64,000 bases of DNA. Source: a virus (Duplodnaviria > Caudoviricetes). Below the pieces are notes generated by a model, which did not search any database, was not told where the DNA came from, and was given only the letters and a program-made list of their open reading frames with translations. The stretch lies in IMG/VR virus record IMGVR_UViG_3300028624_000003, positions 32,001-96,000 of that record; one strand, given 5' to 3'. Made by a program: the position numbers and the translations under genes. Shown piece after piece: positions 325 to 63,559 of the stretch. The first letter of the stretch is position 1, and every line of letters begins with the position of its first letter.

Positions 325-2538
325 TTATGCGATTGGAGTAGTGAATTCGTATGTTTCTGCACCGTTATCCAGTACGGTCACAGATCTTTCCGTATACACC
401 GATCGGTCCACGATCTCTACGCTATGATAGTCTCTGAAGTACGTCACCTCACCAAACTTCCCGGTATCCAAAACTAGTGGTGTAGGATCTACTGTAGTGT
501 GTCGATCTTTACTATCCACACGAAGAATGTCAGTATCATCTAGAGCTGAGAGGTCGAATCCGTCATACTCCCGGAACTTGGATGATATATCCTGACCCAC
601 CGCGGAGATGATACCTTTGACAGTGTCAGTCCCACTAGTTGTACCAATGACAAGATGTGGCGGAGTGATGAACGTGATCGATCTTCTGTTCGTCTCCAGA
701 AACGTAAGTCGATAACTGGTGAGCTGGATGAAGAGTCGTTTAAGTCCAGTATACATCGCAGACTTGTCTTTGTTGAACGCGGTGAATTCCTCAAAGATCG
801 GGTCCTGCATAGGTACAACTTGCTCGAGGAGAATGTCACAGAGATCTTTGTAGAATATCGCCTTGTCTGGTAGCTTTTCATAAGCCGACAATAGCTGAGA
901 GATCTTCGGAGTTGAGTCGATCCATACCTGATAATTCGGTGCATCCACCAACTGAATGTTGATGAATTCCTCTACTGTCAGGTACTTATACAGAGCATTG
1001 AACGCTTCGTGATACAGCAACCCGCCGTTACTCCGGAGACGTTCTATATGTGTCACCAAAACGCGGAACTGTTGTGCAGTTTTTGCTACAAAATCTTCAC
1101 GTGATTCGTATGGTCCAGAATGGAATGGAATCTCATTAAGTACCTTATCCACGTCCACGTAGGTATCCAATCTGTAGCGAACCCCATCCACATAAATCCA
1201 TTTCTGAATAGCAGATTTATTGGGGCGTACCAGCACATACGCATTGTCGATACATGCATGTATGGGAATTACGGTGAGATCTTCCCCACTTTCTTTCAGG
1301 TGCACGTATTGGAACAGTGCGAGTACTTCACCAAACGTCAACTCGATCGGGATGTTCGTATTCGGATCGGTGAAGTTTATTTTGTACTGCAGATTGCCCA
1401 GATACCACTGGTAAACCATGGTATCGAACAGGAACTGCAGCAATAACTTTTCGTATGTCGTGTCCATAATGGACTTTTCGAACTCTAGCAATCTGGTAGG
1501 AACGACGTTCGAAGACGCTTCACCGAATCTAGTAGTCATGCGTTCGACTACTTCCGCATCGAGATTGGGGAAATATCCCTCAGCTTCAATTCGACTAAGT
1601 ATCTGCCCCATCGACTCGAATGAACCTTCGTTTATTCCTTCCGCAGTGGTGTAGTTCACTACGCTATCAGAAAGAAACTCGGGTACAGTGATACACTCAC
1701 TAGCTCTCGTCGCAGTTTGCTGCAACACCATCTTCCCGACCAGTTTAACTTGTAAATCTTTCAGGAGATTCTCTGCTAGTATTTCGAGTGTACGCTTTGT
1801 GCCTTTATTTTGAGAGATGTATTCCATATTCCTATAGAGGAACAGGGCTTGCTTGTCGTTGAGTATGTCACGGTAACTTCTCAGCCCTTTCGAGTCCAGA
1901 TACTCCCAGATGTGAAAAGGATGCACTTGTGGGGTACGAATATTTCTTATCCTTTGTGCGAGTAGTGCCTGGGGAAGAATAGACCAGACAAGACCCATGA
2001 ACGTAGCAGGATAGAATCCTTCGTATATGTAGTCAGCTATGTACCATCGGTTTTCTATGTACCGGAGTACCCGGTCCATTTCTACCATCAGACTTTCACG
2101 TTCGTTCTGGTGAAGGAGAGTAGTATCTCCTGCAAGAACTGTGAAGTTCGGTGCACTGATTGCTAGTGCTATGTTCTCGACAGGATAGACGATCGACTTG
2201 ATCAATCCTACCTGATTCGGATATGTTTCACAGAGTCTGGAAAACTCTTCACTGGGCACTTTGTAAAGTGCAAATGTTTTTGGGTGAGTGATTTTCAAAT
2301 CGGTCGAAAATTTGACCTGTTCCCCAGTTTCCACTGCGGTGATGAACATATCGGTATCGAGCGGACTATACATACCACACAGATTCTGGTAGTATGGATT
2401 ATCCTCAGGACGCTCGACAATGATACCGAGTTCTTCACGCATGCGTTTTTCCATCACATCCGCAAACAACTTGAACTTGATCGTTACGGTCTGAAGAAAG
2501 TCCAAGATTTCTTTGCGGTAGACATCATTCTCGACCAT
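325..2538 (-). CDS. Virion structural (baseplate-type) protein, phiKZ gp128-like
   Basis: Long ORF. Start moved from 2706 to ATG 2538 (GAGG RBS), which removes the overlap with the divergent gene. Assignment by size and synteny. Confidence 0.6.
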   Translation of the reverse strand: MVENDVYRKEILDFLQTVTIKFKLFADVMEKRMREELGIIVERPEDNPYYQNLCGMYSPLDTDMFITAVETGEQVKFSTDLKITHPKTFALYKVPSEEFSRLCETYPNQVGLIKSIVYPVENIALAISAPNFTVLAGDTTLLHQNERESLMVEMDRVLRYIENRWYIADYIYEGFYPATFMGLVWSILPQALLAQRIRNIRTPQVHPFHIWEYLDSKGLRSYRDILNDKQALFLYRNMEYISQNKGTKRTLEILAENLLKDLQVKLVGKMVLQQTATRASECITVPEFLSDSVVNYTTAEGINEGSFESMGQILSRIEAEGYFPNLDAEVVERMTTRFGEASSNVVPTRLLEFEKSIMDTTYEKLLLQFLFDTMVYQWYLGNLQYKINFTDPNTNIPIELTFGEVLALFQYVHLKESGEDLTVIPIHACIDNAYVLVRPNKSAIQKWIYVDGVRYRLDTYVDVDKVLNEIPFHSGPYESREDFVAKTAQQFRVLVTHIERLRSNGGLLYHEAFNALYKYLTVEEFINIQLVDAPNYQVWIDSTPKISQLLSAYEKLPDKAIFYKDLCDILLEQVVPMQDPIFEEFTAFNKDKSAMYTGLKRLFIQLTSYRLTFLETNRRSITFITPPHLVIGTTSGTDTVKGIISAVGQDISSKFREYDGFDLSALDDTDILRVDSKDRHTTVDPTPLVLDTGKFGEVTYFRDYHSVEIVDRSVYTERSVTVLDNGAETYEFTTPIA

Positions 2539-2563
2539 AGGAACCTCATGGAGGGCTAGTTCA

Positions 2564-5251
2564 ATGGATGGTATCAACAGATCGATACGGCAACTCCTGA
2601 CTGGATTCGGTATTGGCAATGCACGAGTACCAAATCCTTCAGCATTACCATCATCGGATCGAGTAAGAAAGAAGTTCACTGCAGCAGAGTTTGAAATTCT
2701 GGCCAAACGCCATTATGTAAAACCTGCAGCCACGATGAGTCATGGTGCAGACCCTGCACAGCTCATATCATACCTTTCGCCTACTCACGAAGGTATGGTA
2801 CGTCAGGTTCAAGACATAGAAAGAATACGTGCGCTTTGTCCTGAAATAGGTAAAGCCGAAAGTATCCTTGTGTCTTCTGTCATGTCTCCTAATGATCTAC
2901 AGTCAGTCGATCCTGACATTACCATCGACGAATACGATGGACTCCCTGAAGAAGTCATTCGAGAAATAGAAAAACTACTCACTCAGACTTTCGCGAAGAA
3001 ATACAGGCTAGGTAAGTCAATGGAAGAGTGGGCAAGAGAAGCACTATTTCGTTCAGGTGCAGCGGTATCGCTTGTACTTCCTGAAGCTACACTGGCACAG
3101 ATAGTGGGTACAGTATCTGAGCAAGGTACTGAAGCTCTTAACAGTGCTTCGGGCTGCGAAGATGTATTCATGCGTGCGCTCAAGAAAAAGATCTACAGCC
3201 CGCAGAGTGCAGTAGAATCTTTTCTGGTAACCTCTAAGCAAGACGAGAAGCCGACAATATCCTCCTCCTTGATACAGGAAATCAAGGATCTACTCGGTGA
3301 TAAGCTGCTCAAAACATTTGAAGAAGAAACTATCGGTGTAGAAAATGTTGCTGTAAATATAGTCACCGAACTGGAAGACGGCGACATACTGCACTTCAGC
3401 GAAAATCCGGAAATCCTTCGATTTGGTAAAAAGATCCGAGAATATGGAAAGAACAAGCTCGGTAAAGACTTGTCCAAATTCTACGATCAATCGAATCGGG
3501 AAATGAAGGAAAGAGACAGAACACTAAACGTGTCGCCAGACAAAATAGAACCAGTCATCGACCTCACTCCGTTTATCACGTCAGACAGTGAGAACATGAC
3601 TGATGCATACATCTTGAAACTTCCCTGTGAATCAGTGATTCCTATCTGTATCCCTGGTGCTCCGAAAGAGAAACTCGGATACTTTGTACTCATTGATGCA
3701 TTTGGTCAGCCGATTGAAGCATCCAAGTACTTGATGACATACATGGGTGGAACTACCAGCAATATGGTTTCGGCACAGTACAGAGCCATGTTCGGCGGAC
3801 GGCCCACTGCTAGCGGTGTGCAGACCAATCGGATGGGAGCTATTGCACAGTTCGGTACTCCGTGGGATATGCAGCAAAGTGCAATAACCAACGTGTTCAA
3901 TCATGTACTTGACGCACAGCTCAAGAAGAAACTTACGAGCATCGGACTTAGCGAAGTAGAGATAGGTGCGCACAACAATATCGCCGCATGTATGCTGTAC
4001 CGTCTTCTCCAGAAGAAGCGTACTGCTTTGGTATTTGTACCTTCTGAGGTCATGACCTACGTCGCATTCGACTACCATGCAAATGGTACAGGTAAATCCA
4101 GAATTGAAGACATCATGTATCTTCTTTCTGTAAAGACTACCATCGTCATCGCTAACATGATGGCGGCCATGAGAAACTCGGTAGCTCGAAAAGACATCGA
4201 AGTCACTGTCGACGAAAAAGAAACGAATGCTGAAGGTATACGTGAAGAAGTTCGACAGGCGGTTATTGCCAAGTACAAACTGAATCTCGACTCCGACCCG
4301 ACATCGATTGCACAGTCGATCATAAACCAGAACATGACGATCAAACTCAAAGGCACCAATGCTGCAGGGTTTGATATCAGTGCTCAGGATACACAGTCGA
4401 ATGTACCTAAGGCAGACACTGACCTACTCGATCAGCTCACGAACGGGATTGTCACTCATCTCGGACCTCCCTATTCGGTAATGAACGAAACGAGTCAGCA
4501 AGAATTTGCGAAGTCGGTGGCTACGACCAACCTGTTCTTCGCAAACGACTGCAGGACATTGCAGAGTACTCTGTGCGAAATAACTGCGAGCTGGTGTCGT
4601 ACAGTAATTCGGTTCTCTCCTTCACTGAAGAAGCAACTACTTGCGATTGTTCAGGGTGCCACAAAGAAGAACGCCGAAAAGCTGACTGCCCAAAGTGATC
4701 CAGAAAATCCTGAACTGAGTAGCGTACCGAATACACTCAACGACGGTGCTAAAGATAGCACCAACACACAGAATGCAATCGCTCAGCTTGGAGAAATTCT
4801 CCAGCATTTGAAGGTGAAGCTGCCTCTTCCCAATATCTCACCCGACAAAGCACAAGGCGAGGTATTCTCTGACTATATTCGTCTCGTGAATGACTTCGTC
4901 GATGCAGTACTCCCGAATGAGTTGGTAGCATCTGACTCTGATCTCTCGGACGTATTCAATGTGTTCAAGGCGAGAGTTCGTGCAGATCTTGTCATGGAAC
5001 TCGGTTCCTCTATCGGGATCAACAGCATCTTCGATGTGCCTGACTGGGAGGATTACTTCGTCAATCGTCGTGGAGATATCGCGAATCTGTTCCTCAAGCT
5101 GCGTAACCTTAAAGCAGGTCTTGATAAGGACAAAGTCGCGACTACGACCCCGACAGAGACTGAAGATGGTACCGATTCTGGTTCGGCGGGTGATACAGGA
5201 AGTGACTCCGGCGGTTCAGATTACGGATCGAGCGACGACTTCGGATTCTAG
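2564..5251 (+). CDS. Probable portal protein, phiKZ gp129-like
   Basis: 895 aa with GYFVLID.FG.P segment, acidic Gly/Asp tail and S/A/G-x-E motifs; size and neighbourhood match phiKZ-like portals. Confidence 0.65.
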   Translation: MDGINRSIRQLLTGFGIGNARVPNPSALPSSDRVRKKFTAAEFEILAKRHYVKPAATMSHGADPAQLISYLSPTHEGMVRQVQDIERIRALCPEIGKAESILVSSVMSPNDLQSVDPDITIDEYDGLPEEVIREIEKLLTQTFAKKYRLGKSMEEWAREALFRSGAAVSLVLPEATLAQIVGTVSEQGTEALNSASGCEDVFMRALKKKIYSPQSAVESFLVTSKQDEKPTISSSLIQEIKDLLGDKLLKTFEEETIGVENVAVNIVTELEDGDILHFSENPEILRFGKKIREYGKNKLGKDLSKFYDQSNREMKERDRTLNVSPDKIEPVIDLTPFITSDSENMTDAYILKLPCESVIPICIPGAPKEKLGYFVLIDAFGQPIEASKYLMTYMGGTTSNMVSAQYRAMFGGRPTASGVQTNRMGAIAQFGTPWDMQQSAITNVFNHVLDAQLKKKLTSIGLSEVEIGAHNNIAACMLYRLLQKKRTALVFVPSEVMTYVAFDYHANGTGKSRIEDIMYLLSVKTTIVIANMMAAMRNSVARKDIEVTVDEKETNAEGIREEVRQAVIAKYKLNLDSDPTSIAQSIINQNMTIKLKGTNAAGFDISAQDTQSNVPKADTDLLDQLTNGIVTHLGPPYSVMNETSQQEFAKSVATTNLFFANDCRTLQSTLCEITASWCRTVIRFSPSLKKQLLAIVQGATKKNAEKLTAQSDPENPELSSVPNTLNDGAKDSTNTQNAIAQLGEILQHLKVKLPLPNISPDKAQGEVFSDYIRLVNDFVDAVLPNELVASDSDLSDVFNVFKARVRADLVMELGSSIGINSIFDVPDWEDYFVNRRGDIANLFLKLRNLKAGLDKDKVATTTPTETEDGTDSGSAGDTGSDSGGSDYGSSDDFGF

Positions 5252-28517: not shown

Positions 28518-29000
28518 GTGGGGAAAGTTGTGTGCAAAATAGTATTTTTGGATATTGATGGAGTGCTCCTCACATTCCGTCCTGAACGGTATTTCGATGA
28601 GGATTGCTACACCTATAACACGGATATTCTCGAGATCTTTATCAAGATGCTGGAAGAAACCGACGCTGAGCTAGTTCTAATCAGTGTCATTGCATCTCAC
28701 CCAAATCCGTTTGATTGGATCAGGAAGAGTGATTCCGCACTGGCGTACAGATTACGGGCTAGACTACATCCAGTATGGAAGATCGATGATGTAACAGTAC
28801 ACAGAGGAGCAAGTATCGGTAGATGGTTGAAGTGGAATGAGATCTCTCCGAAGAAAGCCGTAGTCATAGACGACTCGATACATGGACACGATCCTGACCA
28901 GTACGGATATCACTTCATAAAGTGCACAACAGAGTACGGTATGGGGTTTCATCAACTGGATGATCTGTACATGTGCCTCAAACAAAAAGATTCAGAGTAG
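28518..29000 (+). CDS. HAD-superfamily protein (Swiss-Army-knife RNA-repair type)
   Basis: FLDIDGVL, VLIS, RG..I..WL and VVIDD motifs. Confidence 0.75.
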   Translation: MGKVVCKIVFLDIDGVLLTFRPERYFDEDCYTYNTDILEIFIKMLEETDAELVLISVIASHPNPFDWIRKSDSALAYRLRARLHPVWKIDDVTVHRGASIGRWLKWNEISPKKAVVIDDSIHGHDPDQYGYHFIKCTTEYGMGFHQLDDLYMCLKQKDSE

Positions 29001-29448: not shown

Positions 29449-30273
29449 CTATACTGCGTCCATGATTCTGGCACGACGTCTTTCAGGATCGAGTATGGTA
29501 CTGGCACCATTGAAAGCTCGCATGAGGTCGTTGTAACGATCTTCCTGGTCTGCATACGACTCACATATGCGCTTCATCTCGCCGAGCTGCTGACCACCTT
29601 CAAGAAATGCCAGTTCGGTTTTGATGATCAGTGTGTTATAGATGTACGACTTTACCGCACATGTCACGAGGTCTACGAGAGGCATTATTGCTTGCTCGTT
29701 GATGTTCGTGAATTCTTCGTCATACCCCAGCCGACACTCCAGTATCCAGTCTACATTCTGCAGCTGAGAAATGTTGTTGGGACTGAGCTGTACCAAGTTC
29801 CCAGAACGGAGTATCGGCGTAGGAAGTTCCATCACTCCTGAGTAGGTATGTGAACCCAAAATCTGTGAATTGAGTGCGTCCATGGTGGTACCAGAGAGTA
29901 CACTACCTGGGCCTCCCGATGGAGCTTGCAATCCGTCGTACAGTGCATACGGAAACCGCAACCCTAGTACTTTGGTAATTGGCTGATGCTCTCGTGCTTC
30001 CGGTGGTACACGATAAAGACTGAAGGTCATACTGTTTCCCCAGATAAAGGGAGATGGGGTGGATGATGGTTCTACCCATCCACTCTTCAGTACAATATCC
30101 TTACGTCGTCCACCCATCAGATTGCAGTCTTCCAATACTCGAGGAATGATCACCTCGTTGAGTATGGCGTCTGTCAATTTCATATTGGGACCGACAGGAA
30201 ATGCTTTCAATAGAATCTGTTCGGGGATAGAGTAGGTGATCTTTCTCATACACGCTTCAATTGCATTATGCAT
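29449..30273 (-). CDS. Conserved-type jumbo phage structural protein
   Basis: 274 aa, GGAGG RBS; VKSYIYN and GGQQLG segments. Confidence 0.65.
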   Translation of the reverse strand: MHNAIEACMRKITYSIPEQILLKAFPVGPNMKLTDAILNEVIIPRVLEDCNLMGGRRKDIVLKSGWVEPSSTPSPFIWGNSMTFSLYRVPPEAREHQPITKVLGLRFPYALYDGLQAPSGGPGSVLSGTTMDALNSQILGSHTYSGVMELPTPILRSGNLVQLSPNNISQLQNVDWILECRLGYDEEFTNINEQAIMPLVDLVTCAVKSYIYNTLIIKTELAFLEGGQQLGEMKRICESYADQEDRYNDLMRAFNGASTILDPERRRARIMDAV

Positions 30274-30340
30274 CGTATTCCTCCAATGCAGTAGGTTCTA
30301 TAGGATTGACCCTTATCTGTAAATCCGTCAACATTTCGAG

Positions 30341-30358
30341 TATACATTACAAACGTGA
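30341..30358 (+). promoter_or_regulatory. Phage early-type promoter motif upstream of the candidate ncRNA
   Basis: TATACATTAC-aaacg-TGA, an exact match to the window consensus. Confidence 0.75.
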
Positions 30359-31370
30359 TAGGATGTATCAATTTGTTGGCAGTAAAATTGTACATGCTGT
30401 GCTAATGGTGTGCGCAAACTGCCAAGCATGCATGAGTCCTCTCTGACGACCATGCTGGTGGCTGAGACTCCTACATCTCAGCCATCTACTATAGTTCAGG
30501 CTGGTTCCCGCTATCCACGTCCAAGTCCCTAGCGCACATCAGCGCTTTGACGCCGGCGGTATTATCGTCCTTAACACGGAAATGAATATTGACCGATGAC
30601 GTGCTCGGCTATCGCCACGGCCGGGAACCAGTCTGACATGACCGGACCAGTGTCTTAACCAGTTAATCCACCTTGCGTCATGGCGTGTCTCCTTAAACCC
30701 CCTACCACGCAACAAATTCTACTAGATCACGTACAGAGATATCTCTCCCCTCTGTATATCGCAATCGCAACCGCACTGCGTGAGACGCGATCATTGGTGA
30801 CCTAGTGACAGGTGAAATTCCTGTCCTCGATAACGTCGGCAAAATGCGGACATAAATCGATGAGAATGGGATAAACGTCCACGGTTGCACAGAGACGCTG
30901 GTCCGGTCAAACTTTAGTGGTTTATCCTGGTACTCGCTGCCGCCCTCGCACTCCCCACAAGGAGCACCCGTAAAGGGATTCGGCCGCAGCCTTGCCAGGT
31001 TTGTGAGATGCCCAGCCAAGCGAGCACATCGCTCCATTCTTGGCGATATTAACCCAGATTGTGTAGCACAGGACCGCGAAGCGGTGTCCATGATCGTAGA
31101 CACTTCCATCGACTACATCATGGCGGATTATCCGTTTGAACCGATTTCGTTAGCCTACAGAGAAATGGTTGGCGAGTCGACAACATCGTCGTTCGCAGTG
31201 TCGAATGTCCGCGTCGATCAGCAGCTCGGTGAAGCCGGGCGTTAGCTCCGGCGGGACAATTCGGCTATGGGGGAATAATTTTAGATGGATTACCCCGTAG
31301 TCTACGCACTACCCGGACGAAATAATGGGCCTTCTAGGACCGGGAGCATGCCAGCTCCCGGTCCATTTTC
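30357..31370 (+). ncRNA. Candidate ~1 kb structured non-coding RNA of unknown class
   Basis: No credible ORF; promoter motif at the 5' end and hairpin plus T-tract at the 3' end; long-range helices 30496-30510/30622-30636 (15 bp) and 30639-30655/30893-30909 (17 bp), each with a G-U pair valid only on the + strand; many local hairpins. Confidence 0.75.
31337..31369 (+). terminator. Hairpin terminator closing the candidate ncRNA
   Basis: ggaccgggagc-atgcca-gctcccggtcc followed by atttt. Confidence 0.7.
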
Positions 31371-31415
31371 CTAGCCTTATGTTCTTTTAAATTTTTGACA
31401 GCAGAGGAATATGAG

Positions 31416-31697
31416 ATGAACCGTATCGACGACACGTTTCTTACATTTCCTGAATTCGTGAAGCACATGAAAAAATTGGAAGGAGTCGACATCATCGACT
31501 ACATACCTGAAGAATTCGTGACTGACATTCATGTCATGCAACTATTCCCCAGATACAAAGAACCGTACTCTGTACGGAACCCCAACAAAACCATAGAAGA
31601 TATGATAAGAGATCGAGTGATTCCTGTAGTAGTAGCATTTGTGCACCTACCTAAGACACACTACGTAATGTTTTCTGAGCTTACAGGAACTGCGTAA
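31416..31697 (+). CDS. Hypothetical protein
   Basis: GAGG RBS, about 93 aa. Confidence 0.65.
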   Translation: MNRIDDTFLTFPEFVKHMKKLEGVDIIDYIPEEFVTDIHVMQLFPRYKEPYSVRNPNKTIEDMIRDRVIPVVVAFVHLPKTHYVMFSELTGTA

Positions 31698-31716
31698 TAA
31701 AAAGGAGTTGGGTTAA

Positions 31717-32091
31717 ATGAGCAATGACGATTACTTGAACGACATCATGATGGCAGGAGTACATGCACGCGAAGACTATGTCATATCGCAGCTCAAAAAA
31801 GGCAAACCTGTAAACCATGCAGAAATGCGTCGTCGTGGAGTTAGTGCAAGTGAACGTGCTGCCACTTTCGGACTGACCCCTCAGGCACTTACCCAGCTTC
31901 TGACTCTTCCTGGAATGGGAAGGATGGAAATGAACCGACTCAACATGAAGATACAAGAATTTCTTGATCAAGATCCCCCTGTCTCGAATGACGTCTCACC
32001 TAAAGGAAAGATACTTCCTTTCGTACGTCCGGAAAAGAAAAGCTTTCTTGCACCTGCAGAATACGACGAATATGGTGATCCAGATGAGTAA
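31717..32091 (+). CDS. Hypothetical protein with possible HhH-like segment
   Basis: AAGGAG RBS; LLTLPGMG. Confidence 0.7.
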   Translation: MSNDDYLNDIMMAGVHAREDYVISQLKKGKPVNHAEMRRRGVSASERAATFGLTPQALTQLLTLPGMGRMEMNRLNMKIQEFLDQDPPVSNDVSPKGKILPFVRPEKKSFLAPAEYDEYGDPDE

Positions 32092-32417: not shown

Positions 32418-32435
32418 AATATATTACAACGATGA
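32418..32435 (+). promoter_or_regulatory. Phage early-type promoter motif
   Basis: AATATATTAC-aacga-TGA. Confidence 0.65.
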
Positions 32436-40766: not shown

Positions 40767-41390
40767 TTAGAACATGTGGATCAATTCAGTTTTTGCAAAA
40801 GCATATCCGACGGATATAGCGTCTGCGTCGTGTTCACAAAGAGCCACTGCGTTTTCTTCACTCAGTTGATCTTTGTGTACGGGAACTACGTCAAATGAGA
40901 TTTCAGGATTGGACAGGACAGATTCGATTACTTCGACTTTGTTACTGGTTCCTCTACCTGAGATCGCCAACTTGATTGTCGAGGGAGCAAGTTTGTGCAA
41001 CTTACTAGCAGTCAGCGGGATGCTATTTTCATCTTTGTAAAGATGAAATAACGTACGAGAGATTACGTGAATACACAGCAGAAGCGCAGCGTGTGCACCT
41101 GGTGTACGACTGTTGAAGTAGGTATCTTCAGATACCACGTAATCTGGTTGATATTTTTTCATCAACCTGCACACTTCGTCCTCGACCACATCGAGAGCGA
41201 TTAGTCTGGTACCGTGTTCGAGTACTGCGTCTTTTTGTTTCTTAGCCATTCGAGTGGCATGTGTCACACCGTGACAGCGTACGCGGTAGTCGATAGGGTC
41301 TACTTGGTAGTCACCTATAGCCCACCCGAGGTTGGTGGTACCAGGGTCAAATGAGAGGATCCGTTTGGTGATAGGTGCTGCACGTTCCAT
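40767..41390 (-). CDS. ruvC: RuvC-like Holliday junction resolvase
   Basis: ILSFDPGTTNLGW, VVSED, PSTIK..ISGRG...K, HDADAI. Confidence 0.88.
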   Translation of the reverse strand: MERAAPITKRILSFDPGTTNLGWAIGDYQVDPIDYRVRCHGVTHATRMAKKQKDAVLEHGTRLIALDVVEDEVCRLMKKYQPDYVVSEDTYFNSRTPGAHAALLLCIHVISRTLFHLYKDENSIPLTASKLHKLAPSTIKLAISGRGTSNKVEVIESVLSNPEISFDVVPVHKDQLSEENAVALCEHDADAISVGYAFAKTELIHMF

Positions 41391-41410
41391 ATCAAACCTT
41401 GAGACGATGG

Positions 41411-43132
41411 CTAGTATTTGAAGAATTCATCCTTCGCTAGTTCAGCCATCTCTGCGTAGTTGGGCAAGCCGAAATAATCGTGACCAATCCAAACTGCATT
41501 CTCCACAGGATTTGCGATCCCTCCGAACAGTGGTTCAATGAGCTCAGTAGGTACACCTTCGATTGCCACAGTAGTCGAAAGCTTGGTTTCTTTCGAGATC
41601 CCGTATCCTGACTTGTACGAAGGATAGATTGCTTTGTAGTCAACGTCAGACACACATACAAGAATCATTGATTCGTAGTCTGGTCGTTCTATTACGCAAT
41701 TTGTTCCGATGTCTTTGCAAAGATCTGCACGCAGAACTGCACCACCGACTTTGCCGAGCAGATGGTCGTACGGTCCTGTCATATCTTTACCAGTGGTAGC
41801 GAAGACACGATTGTGTGCCAGTGCAAACTTATAGTAGTTGTCCCTGAGCATGACAGACTGTTTAGAGAATGCGCTCAGTGGACTGTCACCAGTCAGGTTC
41901 CACATAGCAGTAGTGTCGTGGTTCTTTTCTTCCATCAGTACTTCGAGTAATGCGTCCTGTATGTTGTAGACTACATACTCGCAGAAATATTCTGATTGCA
42001 TTTTGTGGTGGTCTGCAGAATACTGACTGATTTCCGAATCACCGAATGTCATCTTACCAAAACCTAGTTCTTCGGTGGCGATGAAATCCAGTTTGTATGT
42101 AGGCTTCTTTTTGTCAGTTTTTCTTATTCTGGCATACAGAAGCATGCTATCGACGAATTGTGACATAGAAGTACAATACAACCAGTGCCACTTATCCGCG
42201 ATGTGTTGTGTGTTCTTCTTATCTCTGATATAGTGGAAATGTTTCCACCTGTCCGGAACTGAAGGATGACTGAACACATCTTCGGGACGAACTCCATAGT
42301 AATTCAGCCTGTCTACGATTTTTGGTATGTCGTAGTCTATGTTCCAGATACCGATAAAGTCGGTTTCTTCCTTATGGATTTTCTCAAATATCCAGTAGAT
42401 ACATTCCAACTCGGTATCGCAGATCTCCAAGTTCAAATTGTAGTCTACAGTCTTTGCACCATCTGGATATGGCAGAGTTATACGTAACTTACCATCAGGA
42501 AGGAATTCTCCTAAATATTTGGTAATTGCTTCATAGATATCATCGCGATATGCTTTCTTTTTGTGACCGTCTTCATACCGCCACATAAAGTCATCTAGTA
42601 CTGCGGTGTAGATAGTTCCGTTCGTAATAAACGTGATGACGTTAATTCGTTTACAACCAAGCACGCTTGATTCGATGTCAAATCCACCGAATGTGATTGG
42701 TGCAGTAGCATGTGCTCTACTGTTGTTATACTTCATTCGAACTAGAGCTTCCATGCTCACGTCGGCATTGTAGATAAACGGAGAGTTGCACAACTCACGC
42801 AAACCTACTTTCTTATATTCAGGATATCCTAGTATTTGCTTCAGATCGTCTACAAGATATCTGTCATCGCAGATGTACATGTCGACTTTATTCATTTCTT
42901 CAGTTTCTTTTTTGTCTTTATGATTACGAAACTGAGGCTTAGTCACGAATATACGCCGTTTAGGATTAAGCAGCGCATTGTCGTTCACTGTCAACCGATT
43001 ACGGACTTCAAGTACATCGCTTGTATCGGAATCTATTGTCACGATCTTTTCTTTGACGATCATGTTGTTGCCGAAGTTATTTCTAACGTAACAACTGTGT
43101 ATCCACTGTCTAGCAGTAATAGGGGTACCCAT
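41411..43132 (-). CDS. Family-B DNA polymerase, exonuclease/motif-A half (split polymerase)
   Basis: ExoI FDIES, ExoII WNIDYDIP, ExoIII YNIQD, motif A DYKAIYPS; motifs B and C absent. Confidence 0.85.
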   Translation of the reverse strand: MGTPITARQWIHSCYVRNNFGNNMIVKEKIVTIDSDTSDVLEVRNRLTVNDNALLNPKRRIFVTKPQFRNHKDKKETEEMNKVDMYICDDRYLVDDLKQILGYPEYKKVGLRELCNSPFIYNADVSMEALVRMKYNNSRAHATAPITFGGFDIESSVLGCKRINVITFITNGTIYTAVLDDFMWRYEDGHKKKAYRDDIYEAITKYLGEFLPDGKLRITLPYPDGAKTVDYNLNLEICDTELECIYWIFEKIHKEETDFIGIWNIDYDIPKIVDRLNYYGVRPEDVFSHPSVPDRWKHFHYIRDKKNTQHIADKWHWLYCTSMSQFVDSMLLYARIRKTDKKKPTYKLDFIATEELGFGKMTFGDSEISQYSADHHKMQSEYFCEYVVYNIQDALLEVLMEEKNHDTTAMWNLTGDSPLSAFSKQSVMLRDNYYKFALAHNRVFATTGKDMTGPYDHLLGKVGGAVLRADLCKDIGTNCVIERPDYESMILVCVSDVDYKAIYPSYKSGYGISKETKLSTTVAIEGVPTELIEPLFGGIANPVENAVWIGHDYFGLPNYAEMAELAKDEFFKY

Positions 43133-63074: not shown

Positions 63075-63092
63075 TATACATTACTATTTTGA
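63075..63092 (+). promoter_or_regulatory. Phage early-type promoter motif
   Basis: TATACATTAC-tattt-TGA. Confidence 0.7.
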
Positions 63093-63127
63093 TATCCACC
63101 CAACAATCTAACCGTAGGAGATTTATC

Positions 63128-63559
63128 ATGGCTACTATCAACGGCATCGAAATCGGTAATGTCGAAATGTTCATCGTCCCCAATGAGATCACGAAGATCT
63201 CAGCTCTGCACCCGTTCGTGGCGAAAGATGTCTTTCGCCAGTTCGACCAGATGGGATTCCAATACCAGGATGGCGACTACGCCATCCAGGTTTGGATCCA
63301 CTCGGAAGGACACGAGAACTGGGCATGCCACGGTGCGCCCTCTGTCGTGATCAAGGAACTGCGCAAGATCAACAACATAGAGGGACCGTCCCGCGGGATG
63401 ATCCCTGCCTTCGTACCCGCGAGCATCCTTCGCACGGCTCGCGAAGGATGGCCGATAGACCTCGGCCATCTAAAGGGTGTCGTAGCAAGGCAGCTCCCTT
63501 ACCGCCACGGCGAGTTTGGGACCTTTGAGGAAGTGTTCACCTCGCTGGTCTACCGCTAG
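63128..63559 (+). CDS. Hypothetical protein
   Basis: AGGAG RBS before ATG 63128. Confidence 0.75.
   Translation: MATINGIEIGNVEMFIVPNEITKISALHPFVAKDVFRQFDQMGFQYQDGDYAIQVWIHSEGHENWACHGAPSVVIKELRKINNIEGPSRGMIPAFVPASILRTAREGWPIDLGHLKGVVARQLPYRHGEFGTFEEVFTSLVYR

Follow-up and report, generated by a model that had tools for sequence, protein, structure and literature searches.

GOLLD and ROOL are structured RNAs of ~580-800 nt whose function is not known; they are often encoded by phages or prophages beside tRNA genes, with which they are possibly co-transcribed (PMC5737381), and both are reported to form RNA-only oligomeric cages (bioRxiv 10.1101/2024.12.08.627333). Phage T5 carries RNAX (misc_RNA rnaX, NC_005859 complement 40848-41566), a 719-nt RNA annotated as "stable RNA with unknown functions". 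From nucleus-forming jumbo phages, which are models of phage cell biology and counter-defense, only small RNAs derived from 5' untranslated regions (5'UTRs) have been described so far; in phiKZ these measure 70-200 nt and lie upstream of a gene (PMC10914365; PMC8244752). The present analysis concerns a gap without a credible gene, between a promoter motif at 30341-30358 and a terminator-like hairpin at 31337-31369, in a 64,000-nt stretch of phage DNA (the window) that spans bases 32001-96000 of the IMG/VR virus record IMGVR_UViG_3300028624_000003, which is 220,982 bp long and has direct terminal repeats. The sequence evidence makes it fairly probable that this gap is a transcribed, functional non-coding RNA gene, and its product is best read as a lineage-restricted large phage RNA of an undescribed family that lies in an RNA-gene island.

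Promoter, terminator and absence of genes

An earlier note on this DNA had described a stretch without a credible gene or hallmarks of a tRNA, transfer-messenger RNA (tmRNA), RNase P or group I/II intron, which opens at an exact copy of a promoter-like motif and closes at an 11-bp hairpin followed by a T-tract. All of these points were borne out. The early promoters of phiKZ have been described as an AT-rich consensus (PMC10914365). At 30341-30358 on the + strand of the window, the phiKZ-type, early-promoter-like motif TATAYATTAC-N5-TGA is present as an exact copy, TATACATTAC-AAACG-TGA. Nine copies are found in the window, all on the + strand, against an expectation of 0.12, and the 221-kb genome contains 22 copies, all on the + strand and none on the - strand, mostly 33-63 nt before the start of an open reading frame (ORF). 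By this distribution the motif behaves as a phage promoter, and the transcript probably starts near its TGA. The motif at 30341-30358 may be equivalent to the phiKZ early-promoter consensus, and the motif by itself suggests that the RNA may be expressed early. Other long leaders behind copies of the motif (window 51848 and genome 112504) were considered and set aside, as they lie within long ORFs and fold as coding DNA.

The terminator-like hairpin at 31337-31369 (+ strand) has an 11-bp stem with 9 G-C pairs (arms GGACCGGGAGC and GCTCCCGGTCC at 31337-31364), a 6-nt loop and the tail ATTTTCC; it scores like an intrinsic terminator with a short T-tract, and is kept in all length forms of the locus in close relatives. 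Its loop (31348-31353) reads ATGCCA in the window and in the related contig L016, and the reverse complement TGGCAT in contigs L014 and L013, with the stem unchanged. The DNA between the two arms of the inverted repeat has been turned around.

Stop codons interrupt all six frames of the gap (30274-31394), as they do across 30341-31400. The longest ORFs in the gap, of 135 aa (- strand, 30702-31109) and 80 aa (+ strand, 31003-31245), have no match to a PHROG family. The GC content is 52-54% within the gap and 41-46% in the flanks. Captured host or plasmid DNA was rejected, as blastn searches of phage, plasmid and E. coli collections returned no match to the gap, and so was a pseudogene of the syntenic ORFs of relatives, for which tblastn and tblastx gave only chance matches. 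No Rfam family reached its gathering threshold over the whole window; at E<=10, the only match in 30200-31500 was a chance one to mir-725 (16.9 bits, against a threshold of 76). This negative takes in GOLLD, ROOL, group I and II introns, RNase P, tmRNA and tRNA. ARAGORN likewise detected no tRNA or tmRNA in the window or in the whole 221-kb genome, and the same tools do detect four to eight tRNAs, plus a tmRNA by Rfam, at the syntenic loci of contigs L008, L009 and L011.

The locus in related phages

The divergent neighbor of the gap is a conserved chimallivirus gene (29449-30273, - strand) for a DUF7484 protein, which was used as the synteny anchor. The protein is conserved among phiKZ-like nucleus-forming jumbo phages, with <30% identity to PhiPA3 gp037 and many others, and on the strength of this neighbor the source phage is placed as a distant, uncultivated chimallivirus (phiKZ-like, Chimalliviridae). 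The related contigs come mostly from sewage-type metagenomes; the sources of contigs comprise SRR29553506, SRR26328488, SRR15237801, ERR7764205 and JGI 3300034683. In the Ralstonia phage RsoM3USA, the place of the RNA locus is taken by the gene of the phage tubulin PhuZ, which there is the divergent neighbor of DUF7484 (L002 3895-4890). A PhuZ pseudogene was rejected for the gap, as tblastn with RsoM3USA PhuZ was empty both there and in the whole genome. That no PhuZ homolog was found in the 221-kb genome is, as a negative from a single query, weak evidence.

Three more distant lineages keep the locus beside DUF7484: L004, L033 and L034 (63% DUF7484 identity), L006 and L007 (60%), and L008-L011 (55%). 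In all three, the same promoter motif precedes the locus in the same direction, as seen in L004, L006 and L009, and the loci are strongly folded on the same strand (in L009, the leader). The window cannot be aligned with them by blastn or nhmmer. Direct sequence homology between the lineages was rejected as an explanation, since blastn, nhmmer and shared 9-mers show only the promoter and the word CCAAACAUGCA.

The content of the locus differs between lineages. In the L004 lineage, an ORF of 213 or 207 aa without a family match lies between promoter and RNA (L004 4234-4875 and L034 643-1266, both on the - strand); it is cleanly missing from L033, and the ORF region shows ~7.5% divergence vs ~2% for the RNA. 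The L006 locus (4381-4960, - strand) is AT-rich (36% GC) and consists of a chain of perfect 7-16-bp hairpins, of which only one, with the loop CUCCUAC, is common to the window. Contigs L008, L009 and L011 carry, at the same locus and on the same strand, up to eight tRNAs (Gln, Thr, Gly, Pro, Lys, Arg, Met and Ser) and a tmRNA of ~398 nt, in arrays with structured spacers that span L008 99-4576, L009 695-4576 and L011 69-3960 (all - strand). Relatives with DUF7484 at 37-40% identity have protein genes at this position. From the tRNA and tmRNA array of one lineage and the protein genes of the more remote relatives, the locus reads as an RNA-gene island of one sub-lineage.

Two further features of the arrays were seen. 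An HNH-like ORF (2445-3011) lies inside that of L008, and the leader (4577-4960) and a spacer (2613-2980) of L009, both on the - strand, fold with sense z scores of -6.3 and -7.8 and may represent further unannotated RNAs.

A conserved 5' module with an invariant loop

The 5' end of the RNA is predicted to form three hairpins. Hairpin 1 (30376-30425) has the outer stem UUGGCAGU/ACUGCCAA and a G-U-rich inner stem, hairpin A (30430-30455) is preceded by the conserved word CCAARCAUGCA, and hairpin B (30457-30486) has an 11-bp stem and the loop CUCCUACA at 30468-30475; all three are on the + strand. Hairpin B is conserved across three lineages. Its counterparts are found in L004 at 4145-4175 (12-bp stem) and in L006 at 4632-4656 (9-bp stem), both on the - strand and both with the loop CUCCUAC. 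A comparison by hairpin loop shows that the stems of the window, L004 and L006 are unrelated in sequence, fully paired and all Watson-Crick. The word CTCCTAC occurs 31 times in the 221-kb genome, counting both strands, and only the copy of hairpin B lies in a hairpin of more than four pairs.

Variation within the lineages follows the same pattern. Between L033/L034 and L004, hairpin B shows two double compensatory and two wobble-preserving changes, together with a C to U change at the first base of the loop, and the rest of the ~850-nt RNA of that lineage has few differences. L007 carries a single C to U change relative to L006, which keeps the pair as G-U, and at one G-C pair of its relatives the window shows G-U, so that single changes remain paired, as G-U, on the sense strand only.

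A covariance model built from window-lineage sequences only (R1, 30372-30492) recovers the module outside its own lineage. Its best match in 55 kb is the syntenic site of L004 (20.4 bits, E 0.007), and L033 and L034 score 25 bits (E 5e-4); in this match the three 5' hairpins are all aligned, as is the word CCAAACAUGCA. The outer stem of hairpin 1 is found by R1 in L004, L033 and L034 with one A-U to G-C double change. The outer five pairs of hairpin A are kept in the L004 lineage with two double changes, and its inner part is not conserved. In the resulting alignment (A9), 10 of the 41 pairs are changed on both sides and 96.8% of the cells are paired, a result equaled by one of 500 shuffles, although A9 was fitted to the model structure, which favors pairing. 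Hairpin B accounts for 7 pairs changed on both sides out of its 11, with all of its cells paired. The IMG/VR and JGI metagenome collections were also scanned with the pattern CCAARCATGCA-N28-48-YTCCTAC, which occurs at no fewer than 142 loci; among the matches listed, only the L004 contig was real, the rest lacking the hairpin, and no new lineage appeared.

These data point to the ~120-nt 5' module with the CUCCUAC hairpin as the well-supported functional core of the RNA, and a loop that stays invariant while its stems covary freely is the mark of a specific reader, be it a protein or an RNA complementary to the loop.

Two other sites resemble hairpin B or its complement. The second-best match of the hairpin model R2 lies at 28557-28581 (+ strand) in a HAD-like gene, with 17.8 bits (E 0.11); L003 and L020 retain this site and L014 has a weaker version, but the match is probably due to chance. 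Two genes (window 63075-63131 and genome 212555-212611) have near-identical promoter-leaders with GTAGGAGATTTATCATG at the ribosome site, where 7 nt are perfectly complementary to the loop of hairpin B; this may be chance, 3 of the 31 GUAGGAG copies being at ribosome sites.

Folding and predicted structure

Folding energies were compared with those of dinucleotide-shuffled controls (40 shuffles), as the earlier note had proposed for each strand. The whole 1014 nt has a z score of -7.8 on the + strand and -5.3 on the - strand, and controls of 0.84-1 kb taken from coding sequence of this genome range from -0.2 to -5.5. The + strand lies beyond the range of the coding controls and the - strand within it; therefore, the + strand is an outlier and the - strand is not. 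Folding of the + strand is a real but moderate outlier. Tiles of 300 nt give z scores of -1.4 to -3.8 in the gap and about 0 in the flanks, and those of the 3' body -2.6 to -3.7 on the + strand vs -0.1 to -1.3 on the - strand. A similar asymmetry is seen in L003 (-9.3 vs -5.0), in L004 (-9.1 vs -2.7 antisense) and in the leader of L009 (-5.8 vs -1.2 antisense). The L006 locus has z scores of about -9.9 to -12.1 sense and -7.6 antisense.

Close relatives were reached through DUF7484 homologs. About 15 contigs with DUF7484 proteins >=98% identical to that of the window have gaps of three lengths: ~700 nt, 1142 nt (the window type) and 1510 nt. The short forms lack 30515-30596 (82 nt) and 30941-31297 (357 nt), and the long forms have an additional 367 nt after 31059. 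The earlier note read the ~1 kb as one multi-domain RNA, but among these near-identical phages it is not conserved as such a unit. A repeat or mobile-element origin of the indel blocks was rejected, as the genome contains no other copies and there are no target-site duplications.

A consensus structure was computed with RNAalifold over 10 relatives. The 5' and 3' strands of a terminal closing helix, 30355-30369 and 30919-30937, pair with each other in this consensus, and the substitution G30920A of the short forms turns a U-G pair of this helix into U-A. A pseudoknot between 30868-76 and 30920-28 is not supported, as the same substitution breaks it yet improves the terminal helix. Two long-range helices of 15 and 17 bp, already seen in the earlier note, appear both in the minimum free energy (MFE) structure and in the consensus, and the imperfect pair that each contains is indeed G-U on the + strand. 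The first (30496-30510/30622-30636) closes the domain 30496-30636. The 82-nt insert, optional in that it is absent from L003 and L020-L023, comprises exactly consensus helices 9-12, that is, two inner hairpins, and the 15-bp closing helix survives in the short form. The second (30639-30655/30893-30909, or 30639-30656/30892-30909 as a 17/18-bp helix) closes the central domain, 30639-30909; here, G30897A in L016 and L017 changes U-G to U-A. Within the central domain, a hairpin at 30682-30701 carries the invariant 10-nt loop GUCUCCUUAA (30687-30696) on a covarying stem, two pairs of which have G-C replaced by A-U in L017 and the short forms, with variable flanks. Most of the smaller helices listed in the earlier note were recovered, among them 30376-83/30418-25, 30459-84 and gacagg/cctgtc; the helix 30767-73/30882-88 falls outside the consensus and is lost in the short forms.

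The central domain seems hypervariable mostly because of a slippage-prone patch at 30741-30766 (alignment A7), where a CT-tract of variable length in a hairpin loop is accompanied by a 6-nt tandem duplication, ATCGCA, present twice in the window and once in the short forms.

The dispensable 3' body (30941-31297, + strand), missing from the short forms, holds an ORF remnant at 31003-31245. The long form creates an ORF of 98 aa, which has a Shine-Dalgarno site and whose N-terminus resembles a signal. As a real small gene it is not supported: it has no Pfam or PHROG match, homologs outside the lineage were not found, and L016 and L014 differ by one synonymous and seven non-synonymous changes. The 80-aa ORF of the window is a remnant of this long-form ORF, and no reading frame is conserved.

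Weighing the evidence

What stands of the giant multi-domain RNA proposed earlier is a non-coding unit that extends from promoter to terminator, is folded on the + strand and belongs to no catalogued family. Conservation beyond the close relatives holds only for the ~120-base 5' module, and the RNA of the window is less of a giant, ornate RNA than that earlier reading proposed. Covariation among homologs was convincing only in the 5' ~120 nt, above all in the CUCCUAC hairpin, and was weak in the body. The core alignment (A2, the shared 5' core) contains 182 RNAalifold pairs with 3 double compensatory changes, ~10 one-sided changes kept through G-U and 5 broken cells, in a structure chosen with the alignment in view. 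With the MFE structure of the window as the unbiased reference, 14 of the 27 changed pair states of the core (52%) remain paired.

Several results weigh against the reading as a functional RNA gene. Large blocks are dispensable among near-identical relatives; the core differs between the window and L003 by ~7%, which is not below the divergence at four-fold sites of the flanking genes (7.6%); and single-sequence structures from all three lineages keep 28 of 45 changed pairs in the sense direction vs 19 of 44 antisense. The thermodynamic signal is only moderate, long coding controls being likewise negative in z, and a model of the central domain (R3) has no credible match in the other lineages. 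As to the 5' module, the hairpin B model finds nothing in phiKZ, 201phi2-1, SPN3US, PhiPA3 or RsoM3USA, and GUAGGAG is not enriched at the ribosome sites of the phage (3 of 31 copies). The body is supported by evolution only weakly.

It is unlikely, though these results lend it some weight, that the locus is mostly non-functional and accessory, with selection confined to promoter, terminator and the 5' module that contains hairpin B, and with ~0.8 kb of decaying or rapidly replaced cargo as spacer. The spacer could, for instance, be what is left of an earlier RNA or gene cassette, and its stable folding would be inherited or fortuitous. The three length forms at a DUF7484 identity of at least 98% would be expected of such a spacer, as would a core divergence about equal to the neutral one, the weak covariation in the body and the ORF remnant that the window keeps from the long form; the L004 lineage, moreover, gains or loses its 213-aa ORF at the same site, and the cargo of other lineages is unrelated. 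Against this, the divergence of the core is patchy, with stretches of 91 nt and 120 nt that have 0-2 changes where ~7-9 are expected at the neutral rate, and the strand-specific excess of folding on the + strand extends to the 3' body. The removal of exactly helices 9-12 by the 82-nt indel, which leaves the closing helix intact, also speaks for a maintained fold, as does the better preservation of the L004-lineage RNA than of its adjacent ORF. Even if the body is dispensable, the locus would still be a clear example of turnover in a phage RNA island.

A cis-acting role appears rather improbable. The gap would then be a giant 5' untranslated leader or attenuator that controls read-through into the + strand genes at 31416-32091, by means of the terminator hairpin and perhaps of hairpin B as a nut/boxB or put site acting on the phage polymerase. 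The gene at 31416 has no promoter motif between itself and the terminator, the next copy being at 32418, and the terminator T-tract is short; operator hairpins bound by a protein typically show an invariant loop on a free stem, and phiKZ forms its 5'UTR-derived short RNAs through conditional termination (PMC10914365). However, the usual leaders behind the motif measure 33-63 nt, and no other copy among the 22 of the promoter has a long non-coding leader. Hairpin B is present once per genome and not at every early operon, the RNA is downstream, not upstream, of the ORF in L004 and L034, and the unit of the sister lineage encodes stable RNAs that act in trans, namely tRNAs and a tmRNA.

Very improbable is a DNA-level element, whose inverted repeats would work in double-stranded or extruded DNA as an origin of replication, as a site of packaging or recombination, or as an array bound by proteins. 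The AT-rich run of perfect palindromes in L006, which folds on both strands (z -12 and -7.6), the flipped terminator loop and the indel hotspot are in keeping with it. Against it, the folding excess is strand-asymmetric in the window, L003, L004 and L009; the helices rely on G-U pairs, in whose place the opposite strand would have A-C; only the sense strand accommodates single substitutions as G-U; conservation of the loop is confined to one strand; and a promoter and a terminator bracket a unit whose syntenic locus in the sister lineage holds RNA genes.

Proposed mode of action

Under the favored reading of a non-coding RNA gene, transcription would proceed on the + strand from the promoter at 30341-30358, probably early and by the virion RNA polymerase, to the terminator at 31337-31369. 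The locus would be the RNA-gene island of the lineage; in the sister lineage, the same site, strand and promoter motif serve to drive up to eight tRNAs and a tmRNA. The RNA would consist of two parts: the conserved 5' module of three hairpins (30376-30486), in which hairpin B presents the invariant heptaloop CUCCUAC, and a strongly folded, lineage-specific and fast-evolving body that gains and loses whole blocks.

We infer that the RNA may act in trans through exposed pyrimidine-rich loops. CUCCU, which is complementary to the Shine-Dalgarno core AGGAG, occurs in the CUCCUAC loop and, within the window lineage, in the GUCUCCUUAA loop, and these loops could pair with purine-rich mRNA leaders. 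Alternatively, a protein might read hairpin B as an operator or as a look-alike of an anticodon loop. With either reader the folded body could plausibly serve as scaffold and stabilizer. The specific mechanism of loop pairing is put forward tentatively, as less likely than not.

Anticodon loops follow the rule Y32-U33-NNN-R37-N38. CUCCUAC fits Y-U-NNN-R-N with the anticodon CCU, and the C to U change of L033 keeps a pyrimidine at position 32; given the tRNAs at the locus of the sister lineage, this fit is suggestive. A bolder proposal, in our view a long shot, is that the tRNA and tmRNA array was replaced by a large decoy RNA. Hairpin B would mimic the anticodon stem-loop of an Arg(CCU)-type tRNA (C32-U33-CCU-A37-C38), and at the very onset of infection, when no phage nucleus has formed yet, the RNA would soak up either a translation factor or a host defense nuclease that targets tRNAs; in a second version, the body would self-assemble into an RNA-only particle, as ROOL and GOLLD do. 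If true, this would be an RNA-based counter-defense of a new kind. More generally, should the reader be a component of host defense or translation, the RNA would represent a new type of takeover or anti-defense factor. The hairpin itself, with its invariant CUCCUAC loop and freely covarying stem, is a small and sharply defined experimental handle.

Comparison with known systems

The S. aureus regulatory RNAs of the RNAIII/RsaE type pair with Shine-Dalgarno regions through C/U-rich hairpin loops. The RNA of the window resembles them in that several loops expose CUCC or UCCU complementary to AGGAG, and in its invariant loops on variable stems; unlike them, it is much larger and phage-encoded, and its complementary sites are not enriched, so that membership in this group cannot be claimed.

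The small 5'UTR-derived RNAs of phiKZ belong to the same virus family and are likewise bounded by a phage promoter and a terminator. The window-type RNA differs from them in its length of 0.6-1.4 kb and its position in an RNA island, and hairpin B is not found in phiKZ.

Judged by context, the nearest counterparts are T5 RNAX, GOLLD and ROOL. With GOLLD and ROOL the RNA shares its large size, structure and RNA-gene context, but their Rfam models give no match even at E<=10. Moreover, the cores of GOLLD and ROOL are multi-junction, pseudoknotted and deeply conserved across phyla, whereas conservation of the window RNA comprises only the ~120-nt 5' module, and only in a few related phage lineages.

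T5 RNAX corresponds in size class (~0.7 kb), in having its own promoter and in its setting in a phage tRNA island, where it abuts a tRNA-Arg gene. In blastn, the two RNAs share only chance words of 9-10 nt, and RNAX does not contain CTCCTAC. RNAX differs further in that T5 belongs to Demerecviridae, the RNA is AT-rich (39% GC) and T5 keeps its tRNAs, while the genome of the window is without them. A chimallivirus lineage can give 0.6-1.5 kb of a dense genome to a folded RNA with a phage promoter, exactly at the site of the tRNAs and tmRNA of its sister lineage, which would link the unexplained companions of phage tRNA islands, T5 RNAX, GOLLD and ROOL, to a new virus family.

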